Shown: in pieces, positions 9,490-29,754 of the stretch
How the letters are laid out: each line of letters opens with the position of its first letter
How positions within the stretch are numbered: position 1 is the first letter of the stretch
NCBI RefSeq assembly: GCF_012910955.1
Contig: NZ_WTVQ01000010.1
Coordinates: 24,349 to 54,348, forward strand
Direction: 5' to 3'
Source of the DNA: Aromatoleum diolicum
GTDB lineage: Bacteria; Pseudomonadota; Gammaproteobacteria; Burkholderiales; Rhodocyclaceae
DNA length: 30,000 nt
Position numbers and translations under genes: made by a program
The notes under the pieces: generated by a model
The model's database searches: none
Told to the model about the DNA's origin: nothing
The model's input: the letters and a program-made list of their open reading frames with translations, nothing else

Positions 9490-9513
9490 CATCATCCTCT
9501 CGCGTCAGGTGCC

Positions 9514-10263: not shown

Positions 10264-10279
10264 TCGCAATATCTCCCGT

Positions 10280-11809: not shown

Positions 11810-11833
11810 TGCTGTTCCCTTCTACCGTCGCGA

Positions 11834-14031: not shown

Positions 14032-14190
14032 TCGCTCATTAATGAATCGATCGGTCGTACCTTGAGCATGAGCCCCCGGTTTCCGCAACACCGCCGGGGT
14101 GCCACTGAAGCCGGAAACTGGCGCCATAAGCCGGCCTCCGGCGAACCGGTGCAGCCGTTCTCTTGTCTTGACTATCTGGAGGAATCCCTC

Positions 14191-15027: not shown

Positions 15028-15037
15028 AGCTCTCCTC

Positions 15038-15087
15038 GCGCGGACGTCGGCAACTCCTCTCCCTCCCCGCCTTCGTCCGCGCTTTTT
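15038..15087 (+). terminator. rho-independent terminator-like element
   Basis: 9-bp perfect stem GCGCGGACG (15038-46) / CGTCCGCGC (15074-82) followed by TTTTTCTT. The loop is large (27 nt). It starts 11 nt after the stop codon. Confidence 0.5.
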
Positions 15088-15188
15088 CTTCTCCGGTGAT
15101 CGCGGCGTCGCCGCTCCAGCCTGCGGCCTGTGATCCCGGTAGCGACGCCCCATCCGCAGCGCCTTTCTCGCCCAGGAGTGCCGGTTTC

Positions 15189-15809: not shown

Positions 15810-16330
15810 TCGCGCTGCTGGCCGACCTCTTCCTGCAGTTCAGCGTGCTGACCGTTGTCGCCTTCGGCGGCATCACCGCGATGCTGCCCGAACTGCACCG
15901 CCTCGTCGTCGAACAGCGGCAGTGGATGGACGCCACGACCTTCGCGCACCTTTTCGCGATCGCGCAGGCGGCGCCGGGGCCGAACCTGCTGGTCGTCTCG
16001 CTGATCGGCTGGAAAGTCGCCGGCATCCCCGGCGCGATCGTCGCGACACTCGCGATCAGCCTGCCGATGAGCCTCGTGATCTTCTTCCTCTACCGCCACT
16101 GGGAACGCTTCCGCGATGCCCCTTGGCGTGCGGCGATCCAGACCGGCGTCGCCCCGCTCGCGGTGGGCCTGGTGTGCGCCAGCGGCTGGCTGATCGGCGC
16201 GTCCGCGGGCCTTGGCGTGCGCGGCGTGCTGCTGACGCTGATCTGCACCGCGCTGATGCTGGTCCGTTCCTGGCACCCGCTGTGGTACATCGGCGCCGGC
16301 GCCGCGGCGGGCGCCTTCGGCCTGGTCTAG
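15806..16330 (+). CDS. chrA: chromate ion transporter (CHR) family, short-chain C-type half
   Basis: 174 aa. LTVVAFGGITAMLPELHRLVVEQRQWMDATTFAHLFAIAQAAPGPNLL. Translationally coupled to the preceding half. Confidence 0.85.
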   Translation: MIALLADLFLQFSVLTVVAFGGITAMLPELHRLVVEQRQWMDATTFAHLFAIAQAAPGPNLLVVSLIGWKVAGIPGAIVATLAISLPMSLVIFFLYRHWERFRDAPWRAAIQTGVAPLAVGLVCASGWLIGASAGLGVRGVLLTLICTALMLVRSWHPLWYIGAGAAAGAFGLV

Positions 16331-16437
16331 ATTCGCAGTCCCCGGGTGCCGCGCCGACGCGACACCCGCTTCCGCCACGTCGGCTTGCCGTCCGTGGCCC
16401 GATGTTATGCTCGGCGGCCCGCCACTGGATTCGACGC

Positions 16438-17379
16438 ATGCTGGAAATTTTCACGATCACCGGTCCGGTCTTCATCGTCATCGCGATCGGCTTCGCCGCG
16501 GTCCGCAGTGGCCTCTTCGACAAGGCCGAGACCCGCATCCTCGGCAAGTTCGCGATCAACGTCGCCTTGCCGGCGATGCTGCTGAAGGCGCTGACCGAAC
16601 GCCCGTTCGCCGAGATCATGAACACCGGCTACCTCGCCGCGTACGCACTGGGCTCGCTCGCCGCATTCGCGATCGGCATCGCCGTCGCGCGCTACGCCCA
16701 GCACAAGAGCCTGCAGCTGAGCGCCATCCAGGGAATGGGCATGTCGCTGTCGAACAGCGGCTTCATCGGTTACCCGATCGTGCTGCAACTGCTCGGCCCA
16801 CCCGCCGCGATCGCGCTGGCGCTGTGCTTTCTCGTCGAGAACCTGCTGATCGTGCCGCTCGCGCTGTCGCTCGCCGAGGGCAGCAACGGCAACGGCGACA
16901 AGGTGCACAAGGTCGTGCTCGCCACCTTCGCCCGGCTCGGCAAGAACCCGCTGATCATCGCGATCGTCGCGGGCTTCACGTGCGCGCTGCTGGGCATCCG
17001 CCTGCCGACGCCGGCCGCACGCGCGATCGAAATGCTGTCGCTCGCCGCGGCGGGCATCGCGCTGTTCGTGATCGGCGGCACGCTGGTCGGTCTGAAGGTG
17101 GCGGGCATGCGCCGCGACATGGCGCAGATCGTCGCCGGCAAGCTGTTGCTGCATCCGCTCGCGGTATTCGTGGCGCTGTGGCTGCTGCCGCCGCTCGACC
17201 CGGCGCTGCGGATCGCAGCGATCACCTTCGCATGCATGCCAATGGCGAGCATCTATCCGATCATCGCGCAGAAATTCGGCCACGAACAGCTCGCCGCGGC
17301 AGCGCTGATGGCCGCGACCGTGACCGGATTCTTCTCGATCAGCGCGGTGATCTGGCTGCTGCGGCCGACGCTGGCCTGA
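16438..17379 (+). CDS. AEC (auxin efflux carrier / MdcF-like) family permease
   Basis: 313 aa from ATG 16438 (MLEIFTITGPVFIVIAIGFAAVRSGLF...), about 10 TM. The track ORF 15757..17379 carries a spurious Arg-rich extension. Confidence 0.9.
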   Translation: MLEIFTITGPVFIVIAIGFAAVRSGLFDKAETRILGKFAINVALPAMLLKALTERPFAEIMNTGYLAAYALGSLAAFAIGIAVARYAQHKSLQLSAIQGMGMSLSNSGFIGYPIVLQLLGPPAAIALALCFLVENLLIVPLALSLAEGSNGNGDKVHKVVLATFARLGKNPLIIAIVAGFTCALLGIRLPTPAARAIEMLSLAAAGIALFVIGGTLVGLKVAGMRRDMAQIVAGKLLLHPLAVFVALWLLPPLDPALRIAAITFACMPMASIYPIIAQKFGHEQLAAAALMAATVTGFFSISAVIWLLRPTLA

Positions 17380-17421: not shown

Positions 17422-18171
17422 TCACGCGAACGCATCCCACAGCAGCTTCACGCCCGACAGCCCCAGCATCGCGGTGGCGAACACGTAAAACACCCGCTCG
17501 GGAATCCGTTTCAGCGCCTTCAGACCGATCCACACCCCGACCGGTGCGATCGGCGCGAGCATCAGCGACACCTTGAAGCTCTCCCACGAGAACAGGCCGA
17601 GCGCGACATAGGGCACGATCTTCACCGCGTTCACCACGGTGAAGAAGATCACCGTCGTCGCGACGAAGGTCTCCTTCGCCAGGCCACGGTTCAGCAGATA
17701 CACCAGCAGCGGCGGCGAACCGGCATGCGCGATGGTGCTGGTGAAACCGGACACCGCCCCCCAGAACAGGCCCGCCAGCTTGCCCGGCGGTCCCGACAGT
17801 TTCAGACGGGCACGCAGGCCGAAGATCCGGTCGAGCGAGAACAGTACCGCGATCGCGCCGACGCAGCCCTTGACGGCCCTTTCCGGCATCCACCCGAAGA
17901 CCACCGCCCCGACCAGCATGCCCAGGCCCGCCGCCGGCAGCAGAATGCGGATCTCCGCGACCGACCACTTGCGCCAGTATGCGCGGATGCCGATCCAGTC
18001 GATGAACACCAGCAGCGGCAGCATCACCGCCGCCGCCTGGCCCGGCGTGATCCACATCGCCATGAAGGGCACGGCGAGCCCGCCGAAGGCGCCGCCGAGG
18101 CCGGATTTGGAGATGCCGGTCAGCAGCACGGCAATGCCGGCGACGATCCAGCCGGCGGTGTCGAATGTCAT
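17422..18171 (-). CDS. TauE/SafE (DUF81) family anion permease
   Basis: 249 aa. LTGISKSGLGGAFGGLAVPFM and GFTSTIAHAGSPPLLVYLL form the duplicated family motif. Confidence 0.9.
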   Translation of the reverse strand: MTFDTAGWIVAGIAVLLTGISKSGLGGAFGGLAVPFMAMWITPGQAAAVMLPLLVFIDWIGIRAYWRKWSVAEIRILLPAAGLGMLVGAVVFGWMPERAVKGCVGAIAVLFSLDRIFGLRARLKLSGPPGKLAGLFWGAVSGFTSTIAHAGSPPLLVYLLNRGLAKETFVATTVIFFTVVNAVKIVPYVALGLFSWESFKVSLMLAPIAPVGVWIGLKALKRIPERVFYVFATAMLGLSGVKLLWDAFA

Positions 18172-18183
18172 GGGGAATTCCGG

Positions 18184-18232
18184 AAATCAAAACGCCGCAT
18201 CGGGCCGGCAAGCATGCAGGCCCGATGCGGCG
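18184..18232 (-). terminator. strong rho-independent terminator downstream of aroD
   Basis: 14-bp perfect stem CGCCGCATCGGGCC (18193-18206) / GGCCCGATGCGGCG (18219-18232) with a 12-nt loop. On the minus strand it is followed by TTTTGATTT. Confidence 0.75.
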
Positions 18233-18283
18233 GAGTCGTAAGCAGGGGCGGGATTCCAGAGCGGACGTGCCGCCTCGCGGGGC

Positions 18284-19066
18284 TTACCCGCCCTTCAACG
18301 AACGCTGCAGCACCTCGAGCACCTTCTTCATGTCCTCGATCGGCACCTGGCCCGGCGCGGAGGCCTTCTGGCCGACCGCGAAGCTCACCGACGAGCCGAA
18401 CACCCAGCCGAACAGGCGGGAGAGCGAGCCGTAGGCGCCCATCGACATGCTGATGATCGGCAGCGAAATCTTCTTCTGCCCTTCGAGCGTCGCCTGCAGC
18501 ACCGTCAGCACATCCTCGAGGCCCTGCGGCATCACCGCGACCTTGGCGATGTCGGCGCCGGCCTTTTCCATCGCGACGAACTTCGCGACGATCTCGTCGG
18601 CCGGCGGCGTCTTCTGGAAGTTGTGGAAGGACGCGATCAGCTTGGTGCCGGTCTCGCGCGCCAGTTCCACGGCCTGCTGGAAATGCTTCGGCTCGCTGCT
18701 CAGCTCGTAGTCGATGAAGTCGACCGCACCGGATCGCGCGACCGCCAGGTACAGCGCCAGCACCTGCTCTTCGGAGATGCCGATGGTCTCGCCGCCTTCA
18801 CGGATCGAACGACGCGTGAAGATGATCGGGATGCCGGCCGCGCTCTTGCGGATCTCCTGCGCCATGTCGACCACGCGGCCGGTCTCCGGGATGCCGGCGA
18901 AGAAGTCGACGCGCCATTCGAGCAGATCCGGCTGCTTGGCGACGATCGCGTCCAGTTCGCCCACGACTGCCGCTTCGTCACGGCCGACGAGCGGTGCGCA
19001 GATCAGCGGCTCCTTGCCGCCACCTACCGGCTTGCCTTTCACTTCCAGGGAACGGGTCATTGCCAT
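18284..19066 (-). CDS. aroD: type I 3-dehydroquinate dehydratase
   Basis: 260 aa. LLEWRVDFF. The His of SFHNFQKTP and the Schiff-base Lys of ADIAKVAVMP are conserved, as is the SR of GSLSRLFG. GGAG lies 8 nt upstream. Confidence 0.9.
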   Translation of the reverse strand: MAMTRSLEVKGKPVGGGKEPLICAPLVGRDEAAVVGELDAIVAKQPDLLEWRVDFFAGIPETGRVVDMAQEIRKSAAGIPIIFTRRSIREGGETIGISEEQVLALYLAVARSGAVDFIDYELSSEPKHFQQAVELARETGTKLIASFHNFQKTPPADEIVAKFVAMEKAGADIAKVAVMPQGLEDVLTVLQATLEGQKKISLPIISMSMGAYGSLSRLFGWVFGSSVSFAVGQKASAPGQVPIEDMKKVLEVLQRSLKGG

Positions 19067-19160
19067 GAGTTGACTCCTCGAATTCTCAAACTGATTCAGA
19101 TACCGCCGTGCGGCGGGGAGCCCGCAGGCTCCGCTCGGCCGACAGCATAACGTCGCCGGC

Positions 19161-20021
19161 CTAATCCTTGTAGCCGATCAGCTTGCGGATGCCTTCGGAC
19201 GTATAACCGTCGTAGCCGAACAGGCTCAGATACAAGGGCGCCATCTCGATGAACATCTCGCGGCCCATGTGGATCGTGCAGCCGCGCGCCTGTGCAGCGC
19301 GCAGCAGCGGGGTGAAGTCGGTCTTCATCACGACATCCGCGACCACCGTCGCCGACGCCAGACGTTCCACCGGCACCGGCAGCGGGTCGGTTTCATTCAG
19401 CCCGAGTGGCGTCGCGTTGACGACGAGATCGAAGCCCTGCGGGTCGTTGGTCGCCACGAAAGCCTCGCGGCATGCGGTATACGCGGGCAAACGTTCGGCG
19501 AGGCGTGCCGCGCTCACCGAATTCACATCATTGATACCGAGCGCCGCTGCCGATGCGTCGGCCAGCGCCACCGCAATCGCCGCGCCGACGCCACCGGAGC
19601 CGACAACCAGACAGCGCATACCCGCCGGATCGATGCCGGCGCGCTTGAGGCCGCGCACGAAGCCGACGCCGTCGAACAACTCGCCGAACAAGCTGCCGTC
19701 GGCGCGCTTGACGATCGCATTGCAGGCGCCGGCCGCGCGCACCGCCGGACTCGCCTCGTCGAGGAAGTCGACGCAGGTCGGCTTGTGCGGAATCGTCACC
19801 ATCGCGCCGCGCACATTGCGCACCGCGAACAGCGCCGGGCCGACCCTCGTGAGGTCGACCGGGGCAATTTCCATCGGCACGCAGGCCGCGTCGATGCCGC
19901 TTGCCGCGAACACCTTGTTGAACAGCATCGGCGCCTTCACCTGGCCGACCGGATAACCGATGACCGGGTAAAGGAGCGTCGAACCGGTGATCGACAGCGG
20001 GTCCATTTCTGTAATAGTCAT
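19161..20021 (-). CDS. shikimate/quinate dehydrogenase family (AroE/YdiB-like) oxidoreductase, divergent substrate pocket
   Basis: 286 aa. The catalytic Lys (VTIPHK) and Asp (LFDGVGF) and the Rossmann motif VVGSGGVGAAIA are present. The canonical SxS and NTD substrate-binding residues are replaced. An alternative start exists at M6 (20006). Confidence 0.85.
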   Translation of the reverse strand: MTITEMDPLSITGSTLLYPVIGYPVGQVKAPMLFNKVFAASGIDAACVPMEIAPVDLTRVGPALFAVRNVRGAMVTIPHKPTCVDFLDEASPAVRAAGACNAIVKRADGSLFGELFDGVGFVRGLKRAGIDPAGMRCLVVGSGGVGAAIAVALADASAAALGINDVNSVSAARLAERLPAYTACREAFVATNDPQGFDLVVNATPLGLNETDPLPVPVERLASATVVADVVMKTDFTPLLRAAQARGCTIHMGREMFIEMAPLYLSLFGYDGYTSEGIRKLIGYKD

Positions 20022-20106
20022 CCGAACGTTCCTTCTCGCGACGCCTTGATGTCTGAAAACGCTGTCTGTTGGGGTTGGGGGCCGGTTCGTCCGCGACTGC
20101 TTCGCG

Positions 20107-21867
20107 TCAGTCGGTGCTGACGTGCGACACGCTCGCGTTCGGCGAGTAGATGTCGAGGATGTTCCAGTGGCCGGTCGTCGGCACCGGGTTGTTCTTCATC
20201 GCCACGTCGATCACGAAGGGCTTCTTCGAGGCCACCGCGCGTTCCAGCACCTCCTTGAACTCCTCGGCCGACTCGATCTTCACGCCTTCCGCCCCGTAGG
20301 CGCGCGCCACCGCGGCGAAGTCCGCCTGGTACGGCTCGCCGTCCTTGCGGAACAGCGTGCCGGTGGTGGTGCCGTAGTGCGCCTTCTGCAGGCCGGCGAT
20401 GGTGCCGAACGCGAAGTTGTTCATGATCACCCATACCACCGGGATGTTCTCTTCCACCGCCGTCGCCAGCACCGCCGGGTTCTGGCCGAAGCCGCCGTCA
20501 CCGACCAGCGACACCACCACGCGCTCGGGGAAGGCCAGCTTGGCGCCGAGCGCAGCCGGCGCGCCGAAGCCCATCGTGCAGTAGCCGCCCGGGGTCAGGA
20601 TGCTGCCCGGGGTGTAGATCGGGAACTGCTGGCCGACGCCGTTCTTGTTCCAGCCCACGTCGGTGGTGATGAACGCGTCGCGCGGCAGCACCTCGCGGAC
20701 CACCGACAGGATGCGCTCGGGCATCATCGGGAAGCAGTCGTCCTGGACGAACTTCTGGTTGCCGGCGACGAACTGCTCACGGAACGCGGCGATCTCGGCG
20801 CGCAGCGCGTCGTTCTTGCGGCCTTTCGGCAGCATCTCGCGGGCGACGCGGTTCAGCACCACGAGCGCCTGCTTGAGGTCGGTGACGACGCCGATTTCCG
20901 CCGGGTAGTTGCGGCCGATTTCCGCCGGATCGATATCGATGTGGATCAGCTTGGTCGGCGGGAAGCTGAACGTGAATTCGTTTTCCCACGAACTGCAGTC
21001 GGCTTCGGCGAAGCGCGTACCGAGGCCGATGATCCAGTCCGCGTTGCGGCACTTGTCATTGACCAGCTGGGTGCCCCAGAAGCCGGTCATGCCGAGTACC
21101 AGCTCATGGTCGTCCGGCAGCACGCCCTTGCCCATCAGCGAATGCGCGACCGGCAGGGACAGATGATCGGCGAAGGCCTTCAGTTCTTCGGCCGCGTCGG
21201 CGAGGATCACGCCGCCGCCGGCATAGATCACCGGATTCTTGGCGTCGACCAGGGCCTGCACGATCTTCTTCGCGGTCACGTCGTCGATCGAGGGCTTCTG
21301 CAGCGCCTTGGTGTGATGGCGCAGGCGGGTGAACAGCGAGACATCGATCTCTTTCGAGAACATGTCCATCGGCACGTTCACCAGCACCGGCCCGGGACGG
21401 CCGCTTTCGGCAAGCTGGAAAGCCTTCTCAATGATTTCCGGGAACAGTTCCGGCGTATCCACGCGCCACGCGCGCTTGACAAAGGGACGGTAGATTTCCC
21501 ACTGCGACGCGTCCGCATGCAGGTTGATTTCCTGGTGCGGGTGCTTGCCGTAGTAGTAGCTCGGGATGTCGCCGGCGATGACGACCATCGGGATCGAATC
21601 CAGGGCGGCATTGGCGACGCCGGTCGACGCATTGGTCAGGCCCGGTCCGAGGTGGGAGAGCACCACTGCGGTCTTCTTCGTCGCGCGCGCATAGCCGTCG
21701 GCGGCGTGGGCGGCGATCTGCTCGTGACGGGTATTCACGAAGCGGATCTTGCTGTTTTCCAGCGCCGTCAGCACCGCGATGTTGGTGTGGCCGCACAGGC
21801 CGAAAATGTGCTCGACACCGCGATCTTCGAGGTAGCGCACGAGCTGGTGGGAAATCAGTTGCTTCAT
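20107..21867 (-). CDS. thiamine-diphosphate-dependent enzyme of the acetolactate-synthase/IlvB superfamily, specificity unknown
   Basis: 586 aa. PYR-domain catalytic Glu (TRHEQIAAHAADGYAR). ThDP/Mg motif LVGDGGFGQNPAVLATAVEENIPVVWVIMNN. GGAGG lies 9 nt upstream. Confidence 0.9.
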   Translation of the reverse strand: MKQLISHQLVRYLEDRGVEHIFGLCGHTNIAVLTALENSKIRFVNTRHEQIAAHAADGYARATKKTAVVLSHLGPGLTNASTGVANAALDSIPMVVIAGDIPSYYYGKHPHQEINLHADASQWEIYRPFVKRAWRVDTPELFPEIIEKAFQLAESGRPGPVLVNVPMDMFSKEIDVSLFTRLRHHTKALQKPSIDDVTAKKIVQALVDAKNPVIYAGGGVILADAAEELKAFADHLSLPVAHSLMGKGVLPDDHELVLGMTGFWGTQLVNDKCRNADWIIGLGTRFAEADCSSWENEFTFSFPPTKLIHIDIDPAEIGRNYPAEIGVVTDLKQALVVLNRVAREMLPKGRKNDALRAEIAAFREQFVAGNQKFVQDDCFPMMPERILSVVREVLPRDAFITTDVGWNKNGVGQQFPIYTPGSILTPGGYCTMGFGAPAALGAKLAFPERVVVSLVGDGGFGQNPAVLATAVEENIPVVWVIMNNFAFGTIAGLQKAHYGTTTGTLFRKDGEPYQADFAAVARAYGAEGVKIESAEEFKEVLERAVASKKPFVIDVAMKNNPVPTTGHWNILDIYSPNASVSHVSTD

Positions 21868-21954
21868 TTGTTGTCGCCTCCAAATTTGACTATCGCTGCC
21901 GTGTCGCGGTCAGCATGAAAAAGCCTGTCCTGCCGGATGCCGTGAGTCGTGCGC

Positions 21955-22803
21955 CTATTTCACTTCGGGAACAGCCCGGCGTGCCGGTCCCGCATAGGTG
22001 TAAGGAATGCTCTTGGGCATCGGTCCCTTGATGCGCCCGCCCTGCTGCGATTGCTCCCACGCATGCGCGAGGATGCCGACCGAGCGCGACAGGATGAACA
22101 GGCCGCGCCCGAGTTCGGGCGCGAAGCCCAGTTCGGCGTAGATCACCGCGGTCGCACCGTCGATGTTCATCGGGATGCGCTTGCCCTTGCGCCGCTCGAG
22201 GATCGCCTCGACCTGCTGGCCGATGCGCGAATACAGCCCGCCGACGACACCCTTGGCACGCGCCGCCTCGACCAGTTCGAGCAGCTTGCCCGAACGCGGA
22301 TCGATCGGATGGAAGCGGTGGCCGAAACCCGGAATCACCTTGCCGTTCTCAGCAATATAGGCGTCGAGGGCAGCTTCCACCGCGTCTTCGAGCGTGGCGC
22401 CCTGCTCCATGCGGCGCGCCGCATCCGCATACAGTTCCATGCACTGCTGGCCCGCGCCGCCGTGGATGCCGGCCAGCACGTTGATCGCCGAGGCCATCGC
22501 GTTGTTCAGTTCGACGCCGCAGGTCACCGCCATGCGCGAGATCGCGATTGACGGCGCCTGCGGACCGTGGTCCACCGCCGCGACCAGCGCCGCTTCCAGC
22601 AGGCTCGACTGTTCGGCCGTCGGCAGGTCGCCGCGCACCATCAGCCAGATCATCTGCGGAAAGCTGATCGCGCCGATCAGCTCCTCGATCGGGTAACCGC
22701 GCATCGCGATCTTGCCCGGGTGGATGTCGATGATCTCGGTCTTCCACCACGCTTCGGCTTCGCGGACGATTTCGTCTGACGTCTTTGCGTCTGAATTCTT
22801 CAT
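21955..22803 (-). CDS. citrate-synthase-fold short protein (citryl-CoA lyase-like)
   Basis: About 282 aa from ATG 22803. The track start at 22809 is a GTG overlapping the upstream stop. The citrate-synthase catalytic triad context is kept: LAGIHGGAG, PGFGHRFHP, PMNIDGAT. Confidence 0.85.
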   Translation of the reverse strand: MKNSDAKTSDEIVREAEAWWKTEIIDIHPGKIAMRGYPIEELIGAISFPQMIWLMVRGDLPTAEQSSLLEAALVAAVDHGPQAPSIAISRMAVTCGVELNNAMASAINVLAGIHGGAGQQCMELYADAARRMEQGATLEDAVEAALDAYIAENGKVIPGFGHRFHPIDPRSGKLLELVEAARAKGVVGGLYSRIGQQVEAILERRKGKRIPMNIDGATAVIYAELGFAPELGRGLFILSRSVGILAHAWEQSQQGGRIKGPMPKSIPYTYAGPARRAVPEVK

Positions 22804-22805
22804 GC

Positions 22806-24008
22806 TCACACCACCTTCTGTTCGTGAAGTTCGGCCACTTGCGCCGCGTCGTAGCCGAGTTCGGCGAGCAGCGCGTCGGTATGTTCGCCGAGTACCGGCG
22901 GCGGCGTCGCGATGTCGGGATTGCCACCTGCCATCTTGAAGCCGGCGCGCACCAGACTGAGGTCACGCCCCACGCCCGGCACATCCTCGAACTTCGCCAG
23001 CAGGTCGCGTTCGAGGATCTGCGGATGCTGCAGCACCTGCGGCACGGTCAGCACGCGGCCGGCCGGCACGCCGAGCTTCGCGAGGATCGTTTCCCATTCC
23101 TCCGCCGACTTCGTCGCCAGCCCCGCGTCGACTTCGACCTTCAGCGCCTTGCGGTTGCGCTTGCGCGCTTCGCGCTCGGCGAAACGCTCATCGGTCGCCA
23201 GCTCCGGCCGGCCGATCGCGGCCACCAGTGCCTCGAACTGCTCCTGCTTGTTCGCGGCGATGTTCAGCAGCCCGTTGCCGGTGCGGAAAGTGCCGGACGG
23301 CGCCGCGGTGAAGTTCTCGTTACCCATCGGCACCGGTTCCTTGCCGGCGATCAGGTAGTTCGACACCACCCAGCCCATCGTCACGATCGTCGAATCGAGC
23401 ATCGACACGTCGATGAACTCGCCTTCGCCGGTCTTCGCCTGACGCACCAGCGCGCTCGCCACCGCGAACGCCGCGGTGATGCCGCCGATCGTGTCAGCGA
23501 CCGGGTAGCCCACGCGCAGCGGCGCCGACTCGTTGTCACCGGTGATGCTCATCACGCCGGACATGCCCTGCACGATCTGGTCATAGGCCGGTGCGTGGCG
23601 CATCGGGCCCTGCTGACCGAAACCCGAGATCGCGCAATACACCAGCTGCGGATTGATCTCCTTCAACACCTCGTAACCCAGGCCGAGCCGGTCCATCACG
23701 CCCGGGCGGAAGTTCTCCACCAGCACGTCGGCGCTCTTCACGAGGCGGAACAGCACTTCCTTGCCGGCAGCGGACTTGAGGTTGAGCGTCAGCGACTTCT
23801 TGCCGCCGTTCTGCGCGAGGAAGGACGCCCCCATCTTCCTCTTGTTCAGCTCGGGATCCGCGCCAAGCTGGCGCGCCAGATCGCCCGATTCCGGGACTTC
23901 GACCTTGATCACCTCAGCCCCCAGCAGCGCCAGCTGATAAGCGCAAAATGGGCCGGCGAGCACGTTGGTCAGGTCCAGGACGCGGATTCCGGAAAGCGCT
24001 GCGGTCAT
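22806..24008 (-). CDS. family III (CaiB/BaiF/Frc-type) CoA-transferase
   Basis: 400 aa. LSGIRVLDLTNVLAGPFCAYQLALLGAEVIKVEVPESGD and the catalytic-Asp region GYPVADTIGG. GGGG lies upstream of the ATG. Confidence 0.9.
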   Translation of the reverse strand: MTAALSGIRVLDLTNVLAGPFCAYQLALLGAEVIKVEVPESGDLARQLGADPELNKRKMGASFLAQNGGKKSLTLNLKSAAGKEVLFRLVKSADVLVENFRPGVMDRLGLGYEVLKEINPQLVYCAISGFGQQGPMRHAPAYDQIVQGMSGVMSITGDNESAPLRVGYPVADTIGGITAAFAVASALVRQAKTGEGEFIDVSMLDSTIVTMGWVVSNYLIAGKEPVPMGNENFTAAPSGTFRTGNGLLNIAANKQEQFEALVAAIGRPELATDERFAEREARKRNRKALKVEVDAGLATKSAEEWETILAKLGVPAGRVLTVPQVLQHPQILERDLLAKFEDVPGVGRDLSLVRAGFKMAGGNPDIATPPPVLGEHTDALLAELGYDAAQVAELHEQKVV

Positions 24009-24061
24009 GTGCTACCCCTTACGTGACAGTGGATCGACATCGATCTCGTCTAGTTGGGTAA

Positions 24062-24090
24062 ATAATAGAACGCAATTCTTTCTAGCGCAA
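24062..24090 (-). promoter_or_regulatory. predicted sigma70-type promoter P2 with embedded operator (drives the caiB-like to aroD operon)
   Basis: Minus strand reads TTGCGC (24090-85), then a 17-nt spacer tagaaAGAATTGCGTTC, then TATTAT (24067-62). The operator AGAAC-GCA-ATTCT occupies 24067-24079. Predicted 5' UTR is about 47 nt. Confidence 0.5.
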
Positions 24091-24274
24091 CTGTTTTTAA
24101 AACTGCGTTTTATTTTTAGACGACGCGGTGGATCCGAAGCTCACCAAGGAATGTTGACCATCGGCGCCGTAGGAGCGGCTTCAGCCGCGAACACGCCCGG
24201 CACGAGAGCTTCCCAGCGAAAGCCGCGCCCACGGGCGATTCGCCCATCGGCGAGGTATCGCGTCAGGCTCTCGG

Positions 24275-24318: not shown

Positions 24319-25167
24319 TCAGGTGTTGCCGGCGGCCACCCTGGCGGCGAGCCACTGCACCGACGCCTGCGCGCGGGCCATCACGAGCGGCAACTGGCTG
24401 TGCTGGTTGTCGTCGCTGAACACATCGAGCGTGTAGTCGCCGCGGTAACCATTGCTTTCGAGCTGCGTCAGCAACTCGGTGATCAGCTGGCCGTGCGCGC
24501 CCTCGCCGGGAAATACCCGTTCGTGGCGCGAGACTTCGACGAACTCCTCGATCTCGGAAATGAAATCGAACTTGTAGTCGGAAAACTGCACGAGGAAGAT
24601 CCGGTCCGCCGGAATGTCCTTCAAGGTATCCGCTGCGGTCTGGCGCATCAGGATCTGGAAGGAATCGATCACCAGCCCGACGTTGCGACGGTTCGCCAGC
24701 TCGACGACGCGCCACGCGTCGGTGTACTCGCTGACCCAGCGTCCCCACGCCAGCGCCTCGTAGCCGATGCGGATGCCGAAGGGAGTCGCCAGCGTGCCGA
24801 GCACCGAAAGATTGCGTGCCAGCAGCACCGGATCGGCAACCGCCGTCGGCGAAGTCGAGGACGACACGATCAGCAGCCGGCAGCCGACCGAGGCCGCCAG
24901 TTCGAGAATCGACTTCGCGGCGTCGAGGCGGTATTCGAACTCCCGCTCCGTATTGCTGCCCATCTCGCGCAACACCTGGAAGGCGCTGACCTTCAGGCTG
25001 CTCTCGCGCACCCGCCGCGCCGCCACCGTCGCCCCTTCGGGATGCGCCAGCAGATCCTTCGCGCTCAGCTCGACCGCCCCGAACCCCGCGGCCAGCGCGG
25101 CGTCGATCTTCTCCTGCAGCGTTCCCGGCAGGGTCGCGCTATTGATCCCGATTCTACGAATATCCAT
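24319..25167 (-). CDS. QsuB/QuiC/Qa-4-type dehydratase domain protein (3-dehydroshikimate-dehydratase-like, xylose-isomerase-like TIM barrel), copy 2
   Basis: 282 aa. INSATLPGTLQEKIDAALAAGFGAVEL, IRIGYEALAWGRWV, DSFQIL, IPADRIFLVQFSD, SRHERVFPGEG and TLDVFSDD mirror the N-terminal DSD domain of QsuB-type enzymes as I recall them. Confidence 0.85.
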   Translation of the reverse strand: MDIRRIGINSATLPGTLQEKIDAALAAGFGAVELSAKDLLAHPEGATVAARRVRESSLKVSAFQVLREMGSNTEREFEYRLDAAKSILELAASVGCRLLIVSSSTSPTAVADPVLLARNLSVLGTLATPFGIRIGYEALAWGRWVSEYTDAWRVVELANRRNVGLVIDSFQILMRQTAADTLKDIPADRIFLVQFSDYKFDFISEIEEFVEVSRHERVFPGEGAHGQLITELLTQLESNGYRGDYTLDVFSDDNQHSQLPLVMARAQASVQWLAARVAAGNT

Positions 25168-25215
25168 ATCGCTGTCTGCGCTACCGCTGGGGAGTGGAGA
25201 GGAGGGTCTCGCGCT

Positions 25216-26106
25216 TCAGGCTGCGGCCGGACGCTGCACGACCTCGAAATAGAACGGCTCGACGACCGGCGCGGTAACCAGGCGCGTGACGCCCGGCCGG
25301 TCCGCATCGGCCTCGGGGTCGCGAGCCAGCGGGATCCCGTTCGCGCGGAAGGCCGCGGCGACGTCCGCCAGCGCGTCAGTCTCGATGCCGATGTCGGCAA
25401 TCCCCTCGGCATTCACGGGCTCGCTTGCCGCGGCACCCGGCGTCGCATCGGCCTCGGGCCGGATGACGATGCGGATCTTGCCGCAGGGGCTCTCCATCCA
25501 GATGCAGCCGCCCGCCGTGGTCTGTGTCGTGCGGAAACCGAAAACCTGCTGGTGGAACTCGATCCACTCCTGCTCGCGGCCGGCGCAGACGGTCAGCGTG
25601 ATGTGTTCGACACGCGTGAGCCCGAGCGGCTTCACCGGCGGCGACATCTGCGGCAAGGGCAGGAAATCGACGTCGTAGATCGTGTGGTCGCCATAGCGAT
25701 CGACAAAGTAGATGTGCGTCCCGCCGACGCTGATGATGGCCGGAATGTTCAGCTCCATCGCGCCCGCGTGCGGTGGAACGTCCCAGGCGCCGCTCGCCAA
25801 CGCCCGCTTGTACGCCGACGCGACGTTCTTCACGCGCACCGCGATCGCGCAGATGCCCGGCCCGTAGCTGCGGTTGAACGTCTGCGCGAAGCTCTCTTCG
25901 TCCGCATTGATCAGGAAATTGATGTCGCCCTGCCGGAACAGCACCACGTTTTTCGATCTGTGTTTCGCAACGGCCGAGAATCCCATCTGCTCGAAATGTG
26001 CTCCCAGCGCAACGGCATCGGGGGCGGCAAATTCGACGAACTCCAGGCCATCCAGCCCCAGAACATTTTCTGGTGCTTCAGAGGTCGAAAAAAACGGGTC
26101 TTGCAT
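25216..26106 (-). CDS. 4-hydroxyphenylpyruvate-dioxygenase-like (VOC superfamily) protein, truncated type
   Basis: 296 aa. The N-terminal half is strongly HPPD-like (GLDGLEFVEFAAPD...GFSAVAKHRSKNVVLFRQGDINFLINAD...MELNIPAI). It ends at YFEVVQRPAAA and so lacks the HPPD C-terminal helix. AGGAG lies 8 nt upstream. Confidence 0.85.
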   Translation of the reverse strand: MQDPFFSTSEAPENVLGLDGLEFVEFAAPDAVALGAHFEQMGFSAVAKHRSKNVVLFRQGDINFLINADEESFAQTFNRSYGPGICAIAVRVKNVASAYKRALASGAWDVPPHAGAMELNIPAIISVGGTHIYFVDRYGDHTIYDVDFLPLPQMSPPVKPLGLTRVEHITLTVCAGREQEWIEFHQQVFGFRTTQTTAGGCIWMESPCGKIRIVIRPEADATPGAAASEPVNAEGIADIGIETDALADVAAAFRANGIPLARDPEADADRPGVTRLVTAPVVEPFYFEVVQRPAAA

Positions 26107-26302
26107 CCTTTGGCTCCTAACTGCCGCAAGGCATCAGACATATGAGGTTTCACAACGCGGCGATGCCGCCACCGCCCTTTTATCATATGCCCGGCAGCAG
26201 ACCCAACACCTTTCTTCGGCCTGCTGTGGCGACAATGAGAAAATGCCGCCGCACACCGCAGCGAAAGCCTTGGCGTGGGGCGGCATGGTCAAGCCGGTCC
26301 GC

Positions 26303-26326
26303 AAAAGCGCCGCTCGCGCGAGCGCT
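26303..26326 (-). terminator. weak terminator/attenuator-like hairpin after the aldehyde dehydrogenase gene
   Basis: Minus strand reads AGCGCTCGCGCGAGCGGCGCTTTTG. It contains the 14-nt palindrome CGCTCGCGCGAGCG and a T4 run. Confidence 0.3.
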
Positions 26327-26346
26327 CCCGGGTCGCGACCCTGGCT

Positions 26347-27837
26347 TCAGCGACGGATGAACGGGTTCGGCACGTCGAGGTCGGTCGAGATCCACACGCA
26401 CTTGGTTTCGAGGTACTCGCGGATTGCGTCGGCCCCCGACTCGCGGCCGATGCCCGAGCGCTTGTAGCCGCCGAACGGAGCGGTGTAGCTCGTCGCGCGG
26501 TAGTTGTTCACCCACACGGTGCCGGCCTTGAGCTTGTCGGTGACGTACATCGCGCGGTGCAGGCTCTTGGTCCACACGGCGCCGGCGAGGCCGTACAGCA
26601 CGTCGTTGCCGATGCGCACGGCGTCTTCCTCGTCCTTGAACGGGATCACGCACAAGACCGGGCCGAACACCTCTTCCTGGGCGATGCGCATCTTGTTGTT
26701 CACGCCGGTGAAGATCGTCGGCTCGACGAACTGGCCGGCGCCGAGGTCGGGGCGCGAGCGGCCACCCAGCACACACTTCGCGCCTTCGCCCTTGGCGATC
26801 TCGATGTAGCTCATGATCTTCTCGAACTGCGGACGCGTCGCGATCGGGCCGACCTGGGTGTCGAGCTGCGAGGGGTCGCCGATCTTGGCGGTGCTGACGA
26901 ATTCGACCAGACGGCGTACGACTTCATCGTGAATGCTTTCCTGCACCAGCAGGCGCGAACCGGCCTGGCAGGTCTGGCCCGAAGCCGCGAACACGCCGGA
27001 CACGATGCCCTTCACGGCCTGATCCAGATCCGCGTCGTCGAACACGATGTTGGGCGACTTGCCGCCCAGTTCCAGCGTCACGGTCTTCAGGCCGCGCGCG
27101 GCCGCTTCGTAGATCTTCTGGCCGGCAATCTCGCCCCCGGTGAAGCCGATGTGCGCGGTGTCGGGATGCTCGACCAGCGGCGCGCCGACTTCATGACCGA
27201 AACCGGTGACGACGTTCACCACCCCCGGCGGGAAGCCGGCTTCGGCGAACAGCTTGGCGAGCTCGATCGCCGAAGCGGAGGTGAATTCGGACGGCTTGAT
27301 CACGATCGTGCAGCCCGCGGCCAGCGCCGGCGCAAGCTTCCAGCTGGTCAGCGTGAGCGGCGAATTCCACGGCGTGATGATCACGACGACGCCCTTGGCC
27401 TCGTACTTCGTGTAGCAGAAGACGCCCTTCTTGTCGGTCGGGATGACGTGGCTTTCGATCTTGTCGGCCAGGCCGGCGTAGTAATGGAAGTACTCGCCCA
27501 GGTACTTGACCTGCGCGACGACCTCCGCAGCCAGCTTGCCGTTGTCGCGGCGCTCGATCTCGGCCAGGTGCTCGGCGTTGGCGACGATCAGGTCGGCGAC
27601 CTTGCGCATCAGTTTGCCGCGCTGGCTTGCGGTCAGCGACGGCCATTCGCCTTCCTCGAAGGCCCGGTGCGCGGCCGCAACGGCCGCATCGACGTCGGCC
27701 TTGTTGCCACGGGCGATCTCGGCCCAAGCTTCGCCGGTATAGGGGTTTTCGGTCGGAAAGTACTCGCCCGAAGCCGGGGGGACGATCTTGCCGTCGATGT
27801 AGTTGCCGTACTTGGGGAGTGCCTTTGCGTTTTCCAT
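26347..27837 (-). CDS. NAD(P)-dependent aldehyde dehydrogenase
   Basis: 496 aa. Catalytic Glu (LELGGKSP) and Cys (GQTCQAGSR) motifs, plus FTGGEIAG and EEVFGPV. GGAGA lies 5 nt upstream. Confidence 0.9.
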   Translation of the reverse strand: MENAKALPKYGNYIDGKIVPPASGEYFPTENPYTGEAWAEIARGNKADVDAAVAAAHRAFEEGEWPSLTASQRGKLMRKVADLIVANAEHLAEIERRDNGKLAAEVVAQVKYLGEYFHYYAGLADKIESHVIPTDKKGVFCYTKYEAKGVVVIITPWNSPLTLTSWKLAPALAAGCTIVIKPSEFTSASAIELAKLFAEAGFPPGVVNVVTGFGHEVGAPLVEHPDTAHIGFTGGEIAGQKIYEAAARGLKTVTLELGGKSPNIVFDDADLDQAVKGIVSGVFAASGQTCQAGSRLLVQESIHDEVVRRLVEFVSTAKIGDPSQLDTQVGPIATRPQFEKIMSYIEIAKGEGAKCVLGGRSRPDLGAGQFVEPTIFTGVNNKMRIAQEEVFGPVLCVIPFKDEEDAVRIGNDVLYGLAGAVWTKSLHRAMYVTDKLKAGTVWVNNYRATSYTAPFGGYKRSGIGRESGADAIREYLETKCVWISTDLDVPNPFIRR

Positions 27838-27919
27838 GTATGTCTCCAGTCATGAACACGAGTCAGTGCTCTGCCTGTCGCAATCACATTCCACCAAACG
27901 GTCAGAAGCCCGGGTTGTG

Positions 27920-27948
27920 TTGCGCTGATCAGAACTGTGTTCTAGTAT
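27920..27948 (+). promoter_or_regulatory. predicted sigma70-type promoter P3 with embedded perfect operator
   Basis: TTGCGC (27920-25), then a 17-nt spacer tgatcAGAACTGTGTTC, then TAGTAT (27943-48). The operator AGAAC-TGT-GTTCT occupies 27931-27943. It points toward iclR-2. Confidence 0.45.
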
Positions 27949-28095
27949 GGGACATGACGGCGCACGATTCAAGCAACTTTTTCAGCGACGCTTGAGATTG
28001 CCGATTCGGTAAGCCCCGGTTACGGCAGAGATACTGCCGCGCCCCGCACGCGATAGAGGTTCACCTGAAAAGGCGGCTATCATGTTCGGAAATCG

Positions 28096-28108
28096 AGAAC
28101 CCGGTTCC
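28096..28108. promoter_or_regulatory. palindrome AGAAC-CCG-GTTCC, candidate IclR operator
   Basis: Read directly. Its centre is 26 bp upstream of the iclR-2 ATG (28128), immediately 5' of the SD GGAG. This mirrors the site in front of iclR-1. Confidence 0.5.
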
Positions 28109-28127: not shown

Positions 28128-28850
28128 ATGAGCAGCGAAGGCGTCGCATCCGTAGAACGCGCCCTGACCATCCTCGACGTGTTCACCGACCGCGATAGAA
28201 GTCTGACCCTCACCGAGATTTCCAAGCGTGCCGGCTTCTACAAGAGCACGACGCTGCGCCTGGCCGAATCGCTGGAGAAGTTCGGCTACCTGCGCCGGCT
28301 CGAGGACGGCGCCTATCGTCTCGGCCCCAAGCCCTTGTTCCTCGGTGCGCTGTACCAGAAGCATTTCAGCACCGCCGACTTCGTGCCGCAGTTGATGCGC
28401 CGGATGTCGGAAGAGCTGCGTGAAGGCATCTCCTTCTTTGTACGCGACGAAGACCGCCGCGTCTGCCTGCACCGCGTCGAATCACCGCGCGCGATCCGCG
28501 ACGCGATCCACGAGGGTGACGCGTTTCCGCTCAACAACGGCGCTTCGGGCCACGTGCTGCTCGCGTTCAGCGGCCTGTCCGGCGGCAAATACGACCAGAT
28601 TCGCGAACGTTACTACGCGATGTCGGTCGGCGAGCGGGATCCCGAAACCACCGCGGTCGCGGCGCCGGTGTTCGCCGTGCAGCAGCGGCTGGTCGGGGCG
28701 CTGTCCGTGTCCGGGCCGAAATACCGTCTCGACGAGAAGGCGCTCGAGGACATCGTGCCGACGCTGCAGAAATACGCCGCGGAACTCACTCACCTGTTCG
28801 GCGGCGCCTGGCCCGACCTCGGCCAGGCATCCAAGCGTTCGCACGGCTGA
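28128..28850 (+). CDS. IclR family transcriptional regulator (copy 2)
   Basis: 240 aa. wHTH LTLTEISKRAGFYKSTTLRLAESLEKFGYL and an IclR effector domain (GALSVSGP). Confidence 0.9.
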   Translation: MSSEGVASVERALTILDVFTDRDRSLTLTEISKRAGFYKSTTLRLAESLEKFGYLRRLEDGAYRLGPKPLFLGALYQKHFSTADFVPQLMRRMSEELREGISFFVRDEDRRVCLHRVESPRAIRDAIHEGDAFPLNNGASGHVLLAFSGLSGGKYDQIRERYYAMSVGERDPETTAVAAPVFAVQQRLVGALSVSGPKYRLDEKALEDIVPTLQKYAAELTHLFGGAWPDLGQASKRSHG

Positions 28851-28857: not shown

Positions 28858-28888
28858 GGTTCAGGCCGACGACTGTTCGGCCTGAACC
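28858..28888. other. 12-bp-stem hairpin GGTTCAGGCCGA-cgactgt-TCGGCCTGAACC spanning the convergent gene ends
   Basis: Read directly. It covers the lysR-type stop codon (28861-63) and the last codons. No U-tract. Confidence 0.4.
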
Positions 28889-29754
28889 AGCAGCTGTCTG
28901 ACGACCGGGTGCTCGACCTTGCGCTGCGCCGAGATCGCGTAGAAATGCTCCACCACCTCCGGGCAGCGACCCAGTAGCGAGAGTCCGCGCACGCGCGTCA
29001 GTTCGTCGAACGACCACTCGGTCGCCGGGAAAGCGCCGAAGCCGCTTTCGCCGAAGGTCGCCAGCAAGGCACTGTCCTCGAACTCGCCGACCACCTTCGG
29101 CCGTATGCCGTTGCGTGCCAGCCAGTCGTCGAGACGGCTGCGCACCGCGGAGTCGGTCGTCGGCATCAACAGGGGCAGCTCCGCGAGGCAGGCCGGAAAT
29201 TTCCCCTTCACCCCCTCCAGCAGCGCTGCCGGTGCGTACCAGGCGACCGACGCCTTGCCCATGCGGTGGCTGAACACGCGCAGGTTCGGATTGGCCGGCG
29301 CCGGCCGGTCGGCCAGCACGACATCGAGGCGGTGCAGGGCAAGCTCGGCGAGCAGATCGCCGAAGTCGCCCTCGTGGCACAGCAGGCGCAGGTCCGGGGT
29401 CTGTGCCGCCGGCTGCAGCAGGTGGCGCACCGCCAGCTTCGGCAGCGCATCGGAAATCCCCACCGCGAGCCGCACCCCCTGGGCGTTGGCGGCCTCCCGC
29501 ACGGCAGCCGGCAGCGCCTCCCCCAGCTGGAAGATCTGCTCGGCGAAGCGCGCGGCCGTGGCCCCCGCCTCGGTGAGTTCGATGCTGCGCCCGGCCGAGC
29601 GGAACAGCGTGTAGCCAAGCGCGCGTTCGAGCTCGTGCACCTGCGTACTGACGGTCTGCACCGCCATGTCGAGCCGCTCCGCCGCCCTCGCGATGCCGCC
29701 TTCCTTGGCCGCGACCCAGAAGTAGTAGAGATGGCGATAATTGAGCGGCTGCAT
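28861..29754 (-). CDS. LysR family transcriptional regulator (NhaR-like subgroup)
   Basis: 297 aa. MQPLNYRHLYYFWVAAKEGGIARAAERLDMAVQTVSTQVHELE resembles the NhaR-type N-terminus (NYxHLYYFW). Confidence 0.9.
   Translation of the reverse strand: MQPLNYRHLYYFWVAAKEGGIARAAERLDMAVQTVSTQVHELERALGYTLFRSAGRSIELTEAGATAARFAEQIFQLGEALPAAVREAANAQGVRLAVGISDALPKLAVRHLLQPAAQTPDLRLLCHEGDFGDLLAELALHRLDVVLADRPAPANPNLRVFSHRMGKASVAWYAPAALLEGVKGKFPACLAELPLLMPTTDSAVRSRLDDWLARNGIRPKVVGEFEDSALLATFGESGFGAFPATEWSFDELTRVRGLSLLGRCPEVVEHFYAISAQRKVEHPVVRQLLVQAEQSSA

Follow-up and report, generated by a model that had tools for sequence, protein, structure and literature searches.

Described IclR operators and the locus under study

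In the comparative analysis of IclR-family binding sites by Suvorova & Gelfand 2021 (PMC8222616), motif group 1 comprises 17-base-pair (bp) sites of the form GTT-11-AAC (GTTYC...GRAAC) and group 2 comprises TGRAACA-N1-2-TGTTYCA, i.e., GAAC-N3-4-GTTC; three-box sites with boxes of alternating direction were predicted for 32 orthologous groups, with PcaU as the experimental precedent. Here, we describe sites of this kind in a stretch of 30,000 nucleotides (nt) from Aromatoleum diolicum (contig NZ_WTVQ01000010.1, positions 24,349 to 54,348; hereafter the window, whose own numbering is used throughout), in which a cassette of about 30 nt recurs at three positions, P1, P2, and P3, within a gene island that also encodes two IclR proteins, IclR-1 and IclR-2. 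In our best explanation, which we hold with good but by no means complete confidence, the cassette would be a three-box IclR operator, GTTGC-N7-AGAAC-N3-GTTCT, superimposed on a sigma-70-type promoter.

In PMC8222616, IclR groups with an LYKSTxLRL recognition helix (Rpic_4039, Bcen_5395, Daci_2968, Reut_B4961, and OCAR_4994), which is also the type of helix found in IclR-2, are assigned GTTCT-N7-AGAAC sites that occur in tandem, 20-21 nt apart, a spacing that yields exactly the junction AGAAC-N3-GTTCT. Their half-sites (GTTCT/AGAAC) and the 17-bp GTT-11-AAC arrangement of box 1 and box 2 are the same as in the window, and many of these sites lie in divergent regions beside the regulator gene. 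The window differs from them in its degenerate outer box 1 (GTTGC) and in the absence of a fourth box, which leaves three boxes rather than two full palindromes, as well as in the regulated genes; furthermore, the published sites are predictions. In the available part of the supplementary tables of PMC8222616, neither IclR-1 nor IclR-2 was found, nor was any protein with the IclR-2 helix core YKSTTL.

For PcaU of Acinetobacter baylyi, the third box is needed for binding (PMC8222616, citing Popp et al. 2002). Like the window, PcaU and PobR combine an IclR palindrome with a third box in alternating direction, at a site within a divergent regulator-operon region, whereas PcaU has a different half-site sequence and acts chiefly as an activator. 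With the PcaR/PcaU/PobR subfamily model, IclR-1 and IclR-2 scored 114 and 105 bits, respectively, compared to a cut-off of 284.75. PcaR at Pseudomonas putida pcaIJ resembles the arrangement proposed here in acting as a dimer of dimers, with an operator that covers the -35 and -10 elements and with negative autoregulation; however, it activates pcaIJ from that position, has another operator sequence, and responds to beta-ketoadipate.

A counterpart of IclR-1 is the Methylobacterium pair Mnod_2088/M446_4650, for which PMC8222616 gives predicted group 2 sites, GGAAC-N3-GTTCC; its recognition helix is almost identical to the IclR-1 helix (PKSGAHRLLAEL), and the proteins are 58% identical. Both in Methylobacterium nodulans and in the window, TTGACA is followed by tandem palindromes 18 nt apart at the regulator promoter. 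The neighboring genes differ (pcaHG in M. nodulans versus genes for an acyl-CoA dehydrogenase, a CoA-transferase, and an electron transfer flavoprotein (ETF) in the window), and both sites are predicted.

Finally, LigR1 and LigR2 of P. putida KT2440 are two IclR regulators of shikimate-related operons that cross-bind each other's promoter regions (bioRxiv 10.1101/2025.08.13.670189). As in the window, two dissimilar IclR proteins are encoded there beside shikimate-dehydrogenase-like and sugar-phosphate-isomerase/dehydroshikimate-dehydratase-like genes. However, in a comparison by motif and gene content, the recognition sequence was found to be another, ATTA-centered one (TGCGATTATCGCA), and the gene content differs; LigR1/LigR2 were rejected as the known counterpart because of the different motif. 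For the IclR family as a whole, the operator type, the three-box layout, the tandem spacing, the autoregulation, and the overlap with the promoter have all been established or predicted before.

Sequence, position, and chance expectation of the cassettes

P1 (14002-14031, plus strand) reads TTGCGT ttgtc GAAACACTGTTC TATATT with the first hexamer starting at 14003, P2 (24062-24091, minus strand) reads TTGCGC tagaa AGAATTGCGTTC TATTAT with the hexamer starting at 24090, and P3 (27919-27948, plus strand) reads TTGCGC tgatc AGAACTGTGTTC TAGTAT with the hexamer starting at 27920. On re-reading, letters and coordinates proved identical to those of the first-pass annotation of this DNA, which had described the three as near-identical promoter-operator cassettes. 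In P1, box 1 (GTTGC, 14002-14006) is followed by box 2 (GAAAC, 14014-14018), box 3 (GTTCT, 14022-14026), and a -10-like TATATT (14026-14031). The corresponding parts of P2 are GTTGC (24091-24087), AGAAT (24079-24075), GTTCT (24071-24067), and TATTAT (24067-24062), while in P3, box 1 (GTTGC, 27919-27923) precedes the perfect palindrome AGAACTGTGTTCT (27931-27943) and a -10-like TAGTAT (27943-27948). The three would represent the promoter-operators of a TIM-barrel-1 operon, of an operon extending from a CoA-transferase gene to tauE, and of iclR-2, respectively.

The pattern TTGCGY-N5-RRAAN-N4-GTTCTA, which goes back to the first-pass annotation, matched exclusively P1-P3 in the window when up to 2 mismatches were permitted; compared to these 3 matches, 0.03 were expected from dinucleotide shuffles, and none of 100 shuffles reached 3. 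Since this pattern had been derived post hoc from P1-P3 themselves, a 32-column weight matrix was built as a more independent test, trained on 11 cassettes, all from other genomes. It scored P2 (45.5 bits), P3 (40.5 bits), and P1 (33.6 bits) as ranks 1-3 in the window on both strands, compared to a maximum of 12.5 bits in 30 shuffled windows, in a test that is partly independent, as the training sites had initially been located with the same pattern. Both approaches thus bear out a conservation of the cassettes beyond chance.

Local pairwise alignment of 229-nt segments centered on the cassettes confined the likeness to about 30 nt, with P1 and P2 additionally sharing a distal element, offset by a 4-nt indel. 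Apart from this distal site, the similarity ends at about 30 nt, which shows that P1-P3 did not arise as copies of some longer segment, duplicated or mobile. While all 3 cassettes of the island are present as annotated, the list was incomplete: a further promoter-operator (P4), a three-box site (O5), distal palindromes at P1 and P2, and a second palindrome at the iclR-1 promoter have to be added.

Putative operator half-sites and promoter elements

O5 (28084-28108, plus strand) reads GTTCG gaaatcg AGAAC ccg GTTCC and lies 20 nt ahead of the iclR-2 ATG. It was the fourth-best matrix match in the window (17.5 bits), extends to the ribosome-binding site of iclR-2, and is not promoter-like. Three alternating half-sites are present in P1-P3 and O5 as well as in 13 loci whose IclR-2 orthologue is at least 54% identical. 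The core of the cassette is a 13-nt palindrome, AGAAC-N3-GTTCT, which is perfect in P3, and half-sites of the GAAC-N3-4-GTTC type that characterizes group 2 were found without mismatch (AGAACtgtGTTCT), with 1 mismatch (AGAATtgcGTTCT), and with 2 mismatches (GAAACactGTTCT). Group 1 pairs are formed as well, by GTTGC-N7-AGAAC in P3, GTTGC-N7-AGAAT in P2, GTTGC-N7-GAAAC in P1, GTTCG-N7-AGAAC in O5, and GTTCC-N7-ATAAC in distant orthologues, with the match to group 1 being partial, as the fourth base of box 1 is G instead of the consensus Y. In the downstream sequences of the window and of the orthologues, no fourth box was seen after box 3, and two complete tandem 17-bp palindromes were therefore dropped as an interpretation.

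The identical 17-nt spacing that had been claimed for P1-P3 was confirmed, with the operator filling the spacer in each case. The claim of a shared -35 hexamer requires a distinction: the TTGCG core is indeed invariant in P1-P3, but it is probably not conserved as a -35 box, given that TTGCGY agrees with TTGACA at only 3/6 positions, while the threshold of the promoter scan was at least 4/6. A G precedes TTGCGY in all 3 cassettes of the window and in most orthologous ones, resulting in GTTGC at a distance of 7 nt from the AGAAC box. Box 1 is probably conserved as an operator half-site, i.e., as a GTTYC variant, because the TTGCG core is invariant despite its poor match to a -35 element and the failed promoter scan, because O5 has all 3 boxes and yet abuts a ribosome-binding site, and because the promoters of distant IclR-2 orthologues carry GTTCC, which is a perfect half-site and a poor -35 element.

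The -10 elements are closer to consensus, as TATATT and TATTAT match TATAAT at 5/6 positions and TAGTAT at 4/6, each behind the 17-nt spacer. Moreover, among the correctly oriented sigma-70-like matches of its own intergenic region, each cassette ranks first or shares the first rank (8/12 for P1). Where box 1 is absent, TTGACA (in P4) or TTGACT (in the cassette of locus L008) is found at the same position. Hence, a promoter at the position of the cassette is very plausible. An RNA element was rejected, since the Rfam search returned no family at the cassette sites and the folding of the cassettes was no better than that of shuffles (z-scores of +0.43, -0.19, and +0.81).

Conservation in other genomes

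For the comparison, 80 loci were fetched around CoA-transferase orthologues; loci from other genomes and from metagenomes are designated by L-numbers. The strict cassette was found directly upstream of the CoA-transferase orthologue in 3 Castellaniella genomes and in a Noviherbaspirillum metagenome-assembled genome (MAG); in Castellaniella, it also occurs upstream of the TIM-barrel-1 orthologue. In Pandoraea, the full cassette precedes a neighboring flavoprotein gene, and the palindrome alone precedes the CoA-transferase gene. When one or two changes in the first hexamer were allowed, the cassette upstream of the CoA-transferase gene was extended to Aromatoleum tolulyticum and Aromatoleum toluolicum (TTGCAC) as well as to Thauera phenylacetica and a Thiobacillus MAG (TTGCGA), and further versions were found upstream of the TIM-barrel-1 gene in Thauera (TTGCAT) and upstream of the acyl-CoA dehydrogenase gene in Castellaniella GW247 (TTGACT). 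Cassettes upstream of TIM-barrel-1 genes were found in L002, L006, L007, L121, L137, and L164. In an alignment of the regions upstream of the CoA-transferase genes (row L165 being left out of account), the block from the distal palindrome through the -10 element was the only conserved one, while the flanks have diverged.

Furthermore, 4-mer palindromes with gaps of 0-13 nt were enumerated in 21 regulatory regions of other genomes. AGAA-N5-TTCT ranked first (9 regions, 0.25 expected) and GAAC-N3-GTTC second (6 regions, 0.18 expected), while no perfect 5-mer palindrome was shared by 4 or more regulatory regions of other genomes. A scan of metagenome contigs with the exact pattern yielded 89 matches, about 20 of which are true relatives with high GC content, where the cassette adjoins orthologues of the CoA-transferase, aldehyde dehydrogenase, TIM-barrel-1, or IclR-2 genes. 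About 30 of the other matches represent an unrelated low-GC repeat, and many others lie inside coding sequence. This repeat (GTTGCGTTCGAsAGAACGCAGTTCTAATCGGGTA; 37-42% GC) was seen at about 30 loci with varied flanks (e.g., L093, L097, L100, L103, L114, L115, and L161), all within a single set of metagenomes that includes the series Ga0126338/9, Ga0126343, and Ga0099808. The repeat fits the cassette pattern and has no link to the IclR gene cluster.

Two gene families that are not represented in the window were also found behind a cassette: FAD_binding_2 flavoproteins of 484-487 residues, encoded divergently from an aldehyde dehydrogenase gene (L090, L105, L107, L154, and L021, there at about 2898-4470), and HMGL-like lyases (L088 and L143). 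Both are candidates for additional members of the regulon. A core cluster of genes for an aldehyde dehydrogenase, a CoA-transferase III, a truncated citrate-synthase-like "citryl-CoA lyase", and an acetolactate-synthase-like thiamine pyrophosphate (TPP) enzyme lies beside IclR-2 orthologues in many betaproteobacteria, with L001-L040 as the related loci, and in the window and in Castellaniella it is joined to shikimate dehydrogenase and dehydroquinase genes. Our literature search found no paper describing a pathway for this core cluster.

Probable assignment of the IclR proteins to the operators

IclR-1 and IclR-2 share 25% identity, and their recognition helices differ (PKSGAHRLLAEL and YKSTTLRLAESL, respectively). 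The first-pass annotation had proposed that the cassettes are co-regulated, probably by one or both of these proteins. Co-regulation by an IclR protein via a shared operator is supported by the phylogenetic footprint, by the co-occurrence with IclR-2, and by the published correlations of helix and motif (PMC8222616). Concerning the choice between the proteins, IclR-2 turned out to be the consistent partner of the three-box cassette, while IclR-1 is tied to plain tandem GAAC-N3-GTTC palindromes.

A relaxed three-box pattern had 34 matches in the 1.38 Mb of fetched loci, and for 16 of them an IclR-2 homologue starts no more than 400 nt away, compared to about 0.9 expected. Among the loci whose orthologue is at least 54% identical, 13 have a three-box site within 400 nt of the gene start, and in 12 of these the site points at the regulator gene and is followed by a TATAAT-like box. 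The (L/F/M)YKSTxLRL helix is retained in every IclR-2 orthologue. On the basis of cluster linkage, co-occurrence, helix conservation, and the published link between helix and motif, IclR-2 is the likely cognate regulator of P1, P2, P3, and O5.

Tandem GAAC-N3-GTTC palindromes with a spacing of 17-18 nt were found at the promoters of the IclR-1 homologues of M. nodulans, L172, and Thauera and of IclR-1 in the window; in M. nodulans, Thauera, and the window they are located behind a TTGACA. In L170, a single palindrome was found, upstream of the acyl-CoA dehydrogenase gene. For Mnod_2088, PMC8222616 lists the predicted site GGAACcAcGTTC. The order of iclR-1 followed by genes for an acyl-CoA dehydrogenase, a CoA-transferase, and ETF is a conserved unit, and P4, the promoter of iclR-1, is most simply explained by autoregulation of IclR-1. 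As the core of P1-P3 is a palindrome of the same kind, IclR-1 may bind there as well. No close solved or characterized relative was found for either protein.

Proposed mode of regulation and alternatives

We propose a mechanism in which IclR-2 would cover, probably as a dimer of dimers, about 30-37 bp from -37 to about -10, with box 1 at the -35 position, boxes 2 and 3 filling the 17-nt spacer, and the last T of box 3 serving as the first base of the -10 element. Without inducer, IclR-2 would exclude RNA polymerase from the promoter, which some pathway intermediate would then free from IclR-2. The units under its control would comprise the TIM-barrel/transporter operon (P1), the operon that starts with the CoA-transferase gene and includes aroD and tauE (P2), and its own gene (P3 and O5) as well as, probably, the divergent aldehyde dehydrogenase operon as a fourth. 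Upstream of P1 and P2, the weaker palindromes at a distance of 28-33 bp, i.e., about three helical turns, may permit cooperative binding. In the iclR-1 operon (iclR-1, acyl-CoA dehydrogenase, CoA-transferase, and ETF), the same layout on a TTGACA with palindromes 18 nt apart would serve the autoregulation of IclR-1. Repression by promoter occlusion is the most likely mode, as judged from the position of the site only. The analysis demonstrates the sequence of the sites, their statistical excess, their conservation across genera, their co-occurrence with IclR-2, and the conservation of the helix, whereas promoter activity, the identity of the binding protein, and repression are inferred.

Several points weigh against this interpretation, in addition to the shared origin of the pattern and the matrix training sites. 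P1-P3 fall short of simple promoter-scan criteria, TTGCGY being a poor -35 element, and in the 3 Castellaniella loci no IclR gene was found within 10 kb of the cassette, so that a link to IclR-2 presupposes a gene elsewhere in these genomes. Moreover, the palindrome of box 2 and box 3 is of the site type of IclR-1 homologues, which makes the binder in this genome ambiguous, and the helix-to-motif assignments of PMC8222616 are themselves computational predictions. Finally, a site across the -35 and -10 elements does not by itself prove repression, as by analogy PcaR activates from such a site.

The alternative that fares best is a dual control, in which IclR-1 also, or instead, binds via AGAAC-N3-GTTCT while IclR-2 binds via GTTGC-N7-AGAAC, so that the middle box would be shared and two signals integrated. 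The kinship of IclR-1 with Mnod_2088, which extends from the near-identical helix and its predicted site in PMC8222616 to the 58% identity of the proteins, speaks for it, as do the GAAC-N3-GTTC palindromes at the promoters of IclR-1 homologues (M. nodulans, L172, L170, L002/L003, and the window; tandem except in L170) and the fact that P1 and the iclR-1 promoter occupy one intergenic region. However, loci with IclR-2 and no IclR-1 within the fetched flanks retain all 3 boxes, so that IclR-2 alone can account for them; box 2 of the cassettes is often AGAAT or GAAAC, whereas IclR-1-type sites have a strict GGAAC/TGAAC core; and IclR-1 is encoded near a cassette only in the window and in L002/L003. 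We therefore regard dual control as a possibility that deserves attention but is on balance doubtful. A more far-reaching version appears less probable still: it would have two unrelated IclR regulators read one operator via the common middle half-site and integrate two effector signals at all promoters of the island, which would itself specify a hitherto undescribed, CoA-dependent route for alicyclic acids of the quinate/shikimate type in a denitrifying Aromatoleum.

Alternatively, the bound protein could be an activator or a dual activator-repressor that aids RNA polymerase across the -35 and -10 elements in the presence of inducer, in the manner of PcaR at pcaIJ, and the weak -35 element would explain why activation is needed. 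PcaR covers the -35 and -10 elements as a dimer of dimers and activates in this way, while it represses its own gene (bioRxiv 10.1101/2023.07.27.550818). In the window, TTGCGY is poor as a -35 element, both IclR proteins match the PcaR/PcaU/PobR subfamily model, although below threshold, and among solved structures, a regulator of the Pca regulon comes closest to IclR-1. Nevertheless, the spacer of 17 nt is optimal as it stands and the -10 boxes match well (4-5/6), and an operator at the regulator's own promoter and again at O5, in the region of the ribosome-binding site, fits negative autoregulation. Furthermore, IclR sites centered between the -35 and -10 elements are mostly repressive. This renders activation unlikely compared to occlusion by IclR-2. 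That the similarity is a duplication remnant or a dispersed repeat, comparable to repetitive extragenic palindromic (REP) sequences or miniature inverted-repeat transposable elements (MITEs), without any regulatory role, is highly improbable, since despite the presence of REP-like hairpins in the genome (e.g., GCGGCTGAAGCCGC about 80 nt upstream of P2), the similarity ends at the cassette edges, the cassette is kept before orthologous genes in several genera with diverged flanks, the site always lies at promoter distance from the start codon and is oriented toward the gene, and the above folding z-scores lack the RNA/hairpin stability signal of REP or MITE elements.

Under the preferred explanation of a three-box operator bound by IclR-2, the cassettes provide a concrete regulon for an uncharacterized island (CoA-transferase III, citryl-CoA-lyase-like protein, TPP enzyme, aldehyde dehydrogenase, and shikimate/dehydroquinate enzymes) that is widespread in betaproteobacteria without an assigned pathway and may specify a CoA-dependent route, so far undescribed, for the catabolism of quinate/shikimate-type compounds. 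With the operator as a query, other genes of the pathway can be searched for; it already indicates a flavoprotein binding flavin adenine dinucleotide (FAD) and a gene for a protein resembling 3-hydroxy-3-methylglutaryl-CoA (HMG-CoA) lyase elsewhere, and IclR-2 is a candidate biosensor for the inducer. The site represents a clean natural case of the three-box IclR architecture, which so far has mostly been predicted, and with a second IclR protein for the same core half-site, the locus is suited to the study of alternative dimerization and of cross-talk between IclR regulators. It should be noted that the general picture of bacterial gene control is unaltered by this fairly ordinary circuit, which is useful for annotation.

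Additional sites in the island

P4 (13915-13943, minus strand) reads TTGACA ggact TGAAGGCAGTTC TAAAGT and has a canonical -35 element and no box 1. It scored 10/12 in the promoter scan, the best value between 13000 and 30000, and 14.6 bits with the weight matrix, compared to the shuffle maximum of 12.5; its layout is kept in L002/L003. A second palindrome at the iclR-1 promoter (TGAACTTGGTTCA / TGAACCAAGTTCA, 13902-13914) is located 18 nt from the P4 palindrome, with its center 27 nt ahead of the iclR-1 start codon, and reads GGAACTAAGTTCA in L002/L003. Both palindromes are kept in T. phenylacetica and in the Thiobacillus MAG.

The distal palindrome of P1 (AAAACGCCGTTGT, 13986-13998) is weaker, lies 28 bp upstream of the P1 core, and aligns with the distal site of P2. 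The latter, which is weaker as well (AAAACGCAGTTTT on the minus strand, 24099-24111), is located 32 bp from the P2 core, center to center, and was kept at 32-33 bp in L001, L002, L006, L007, and L010.

Some further elements were observed around these sites. In the intergenic region of iclR-1 and the TIM-barrel-1 gene, an 11-nt direct repeat, AAGTTGCGTTT, occurs at 13968-13978 and 14000-14010 (plus strand), 32 nt apart, and behind its first copy lies an inverted repeat, GCGTTTT-N6-AAAACGC, that was also picked up by the terminator scan on the minus strand. Sequences containing ATCGAT were found 10-25 nt downstream of the -10 elements of P1 (ATCGATCGG, 14043-14052, plus strand) and P2 (GATCGATGTCGATCC, about 24026-24041, minus strand), the latter being kept upstream of the CoA-transferase gene of A. 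tolulyticum (L001) as GATCGATGTTGATCC; they may represent a leader element or a coincidence. The REP-like hairpin mentioned above is located at about 24170-24190 (minus strand), in the 230-nt gap between the TIM-barrel-2 gene and P2, and may be where the upstream transcription unit ends; no terminator was called there by the terminator scan.

Gene content and presumed operon structure

The gene map was derived from third-position GC content and from Pfam/NCBIfam searches. The genes faced by P1, P2, and P3 are those that had been named before, i.e., TIM-barrel 1, the CoA-transferase string to aroD, and iclR-2. P1 is located 31 nt upstream of the TIM-barrel-1 gene (xylose-isomerase-like; start at 14062 or 14068, end at 15027, plus strand), which is followed by 2 adjacent half-size Chromate_transp (ChrA-like) genes (about 15255-15809 and 15824-16330, plus strand; approximate starts) and by an AEC-family transporter gene that ends at 17379 (plus strand). 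The Chromate_transp genes between the TIM-barrel-1 and transporter genes were obscured by overlapping open reading frames. Judged by orientation, the genes from 14062 to 17379 are presumed to form one P1 operon. Upstream, on the minus strand, iclR-1 (13051-13881, 276 residues, assigned by Pfam, recognition helix PKSGAHRLLAEL) precedes genes for ETF alpha and beta, a CoA-transferase, and an acyl-CoA dehydrogenase (8527-13000). IclR-1 shows 100% identity to a protein of Aromatoleum diolicum, while exact look-ups with IclR-2 and the CoA-transferase returned no entry.

P2 lies 54 nt upstream of the CoA-transferase III gene (22806-24008), which heads a co-directional string on the minus strand comprising genes for a citryl-CoA-lyase-like protein (21955-22809), a TPP enzyme (20107-21867), a shikimate-dehydrogenase-like protein (19161-20021), a type I dehydroquinase (aroD, 18284-19066), and TauE (17422-18171). 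With intergenic gaps of at most 113 nt from 17422 to 24008, the string from CoA-transferase III through TauE is presumed to be one P2 operon. We had considered cyclohexane-1,2-dione hydrolase, an enzyme known from this species, as the identity of the TPP enzyme; this was rejected, since among solved structures the enzyme is most closely related to BbmA and acetolactate synthases (E of about 1e-81), with no near-identical chain.

P3 is located in a divergent region, with an aldehyde dehydrogenase gene (26347-27837, minus strand) on one side and iclR-2 (28128-28850, plus strand; 240 residues with Pfam domains HTH_IclR and IclR_C; helix FYKSTTLRL) on the other. A candidate divergent promoter, TTGAAT-17-CATACT, adjoins the P3 palindrome and is directed toward the aldehyde dehydrogenase operon; the genes for aldehyde dehydrogenase, a protein similar to 4-hydroxyphenylpyruvate dioxygenase (HPPD-like, 25216-26106), and TIM-barrel 2 (24319-25167), i.e., the minus-strand stretch from 24319 to 27837, are probably under the control of the P3 palindrome. 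In a match to QuiC (3-dehydroshikimate dehydratase), the TIM-barrel-2 protein corresponds to the N-terminal half (model positions 5-249 of 635) and the HPPD-like protein to the C-terminal half (model positions 287-528 of 635), which looks like a QuiC-type enzyme split over 2 neighboring genes. Beyond iclR-2, a LysR gene was assigned to 28861-29754 (minus strand). Elsewhere in the window, RF02278, a betaproteobacterial toxic small RNA, was identified at 3236-3303 (minus strand) with 59.1 bits and an E-value of 1e-9, above the gathering score, as the sole Rfam hit.

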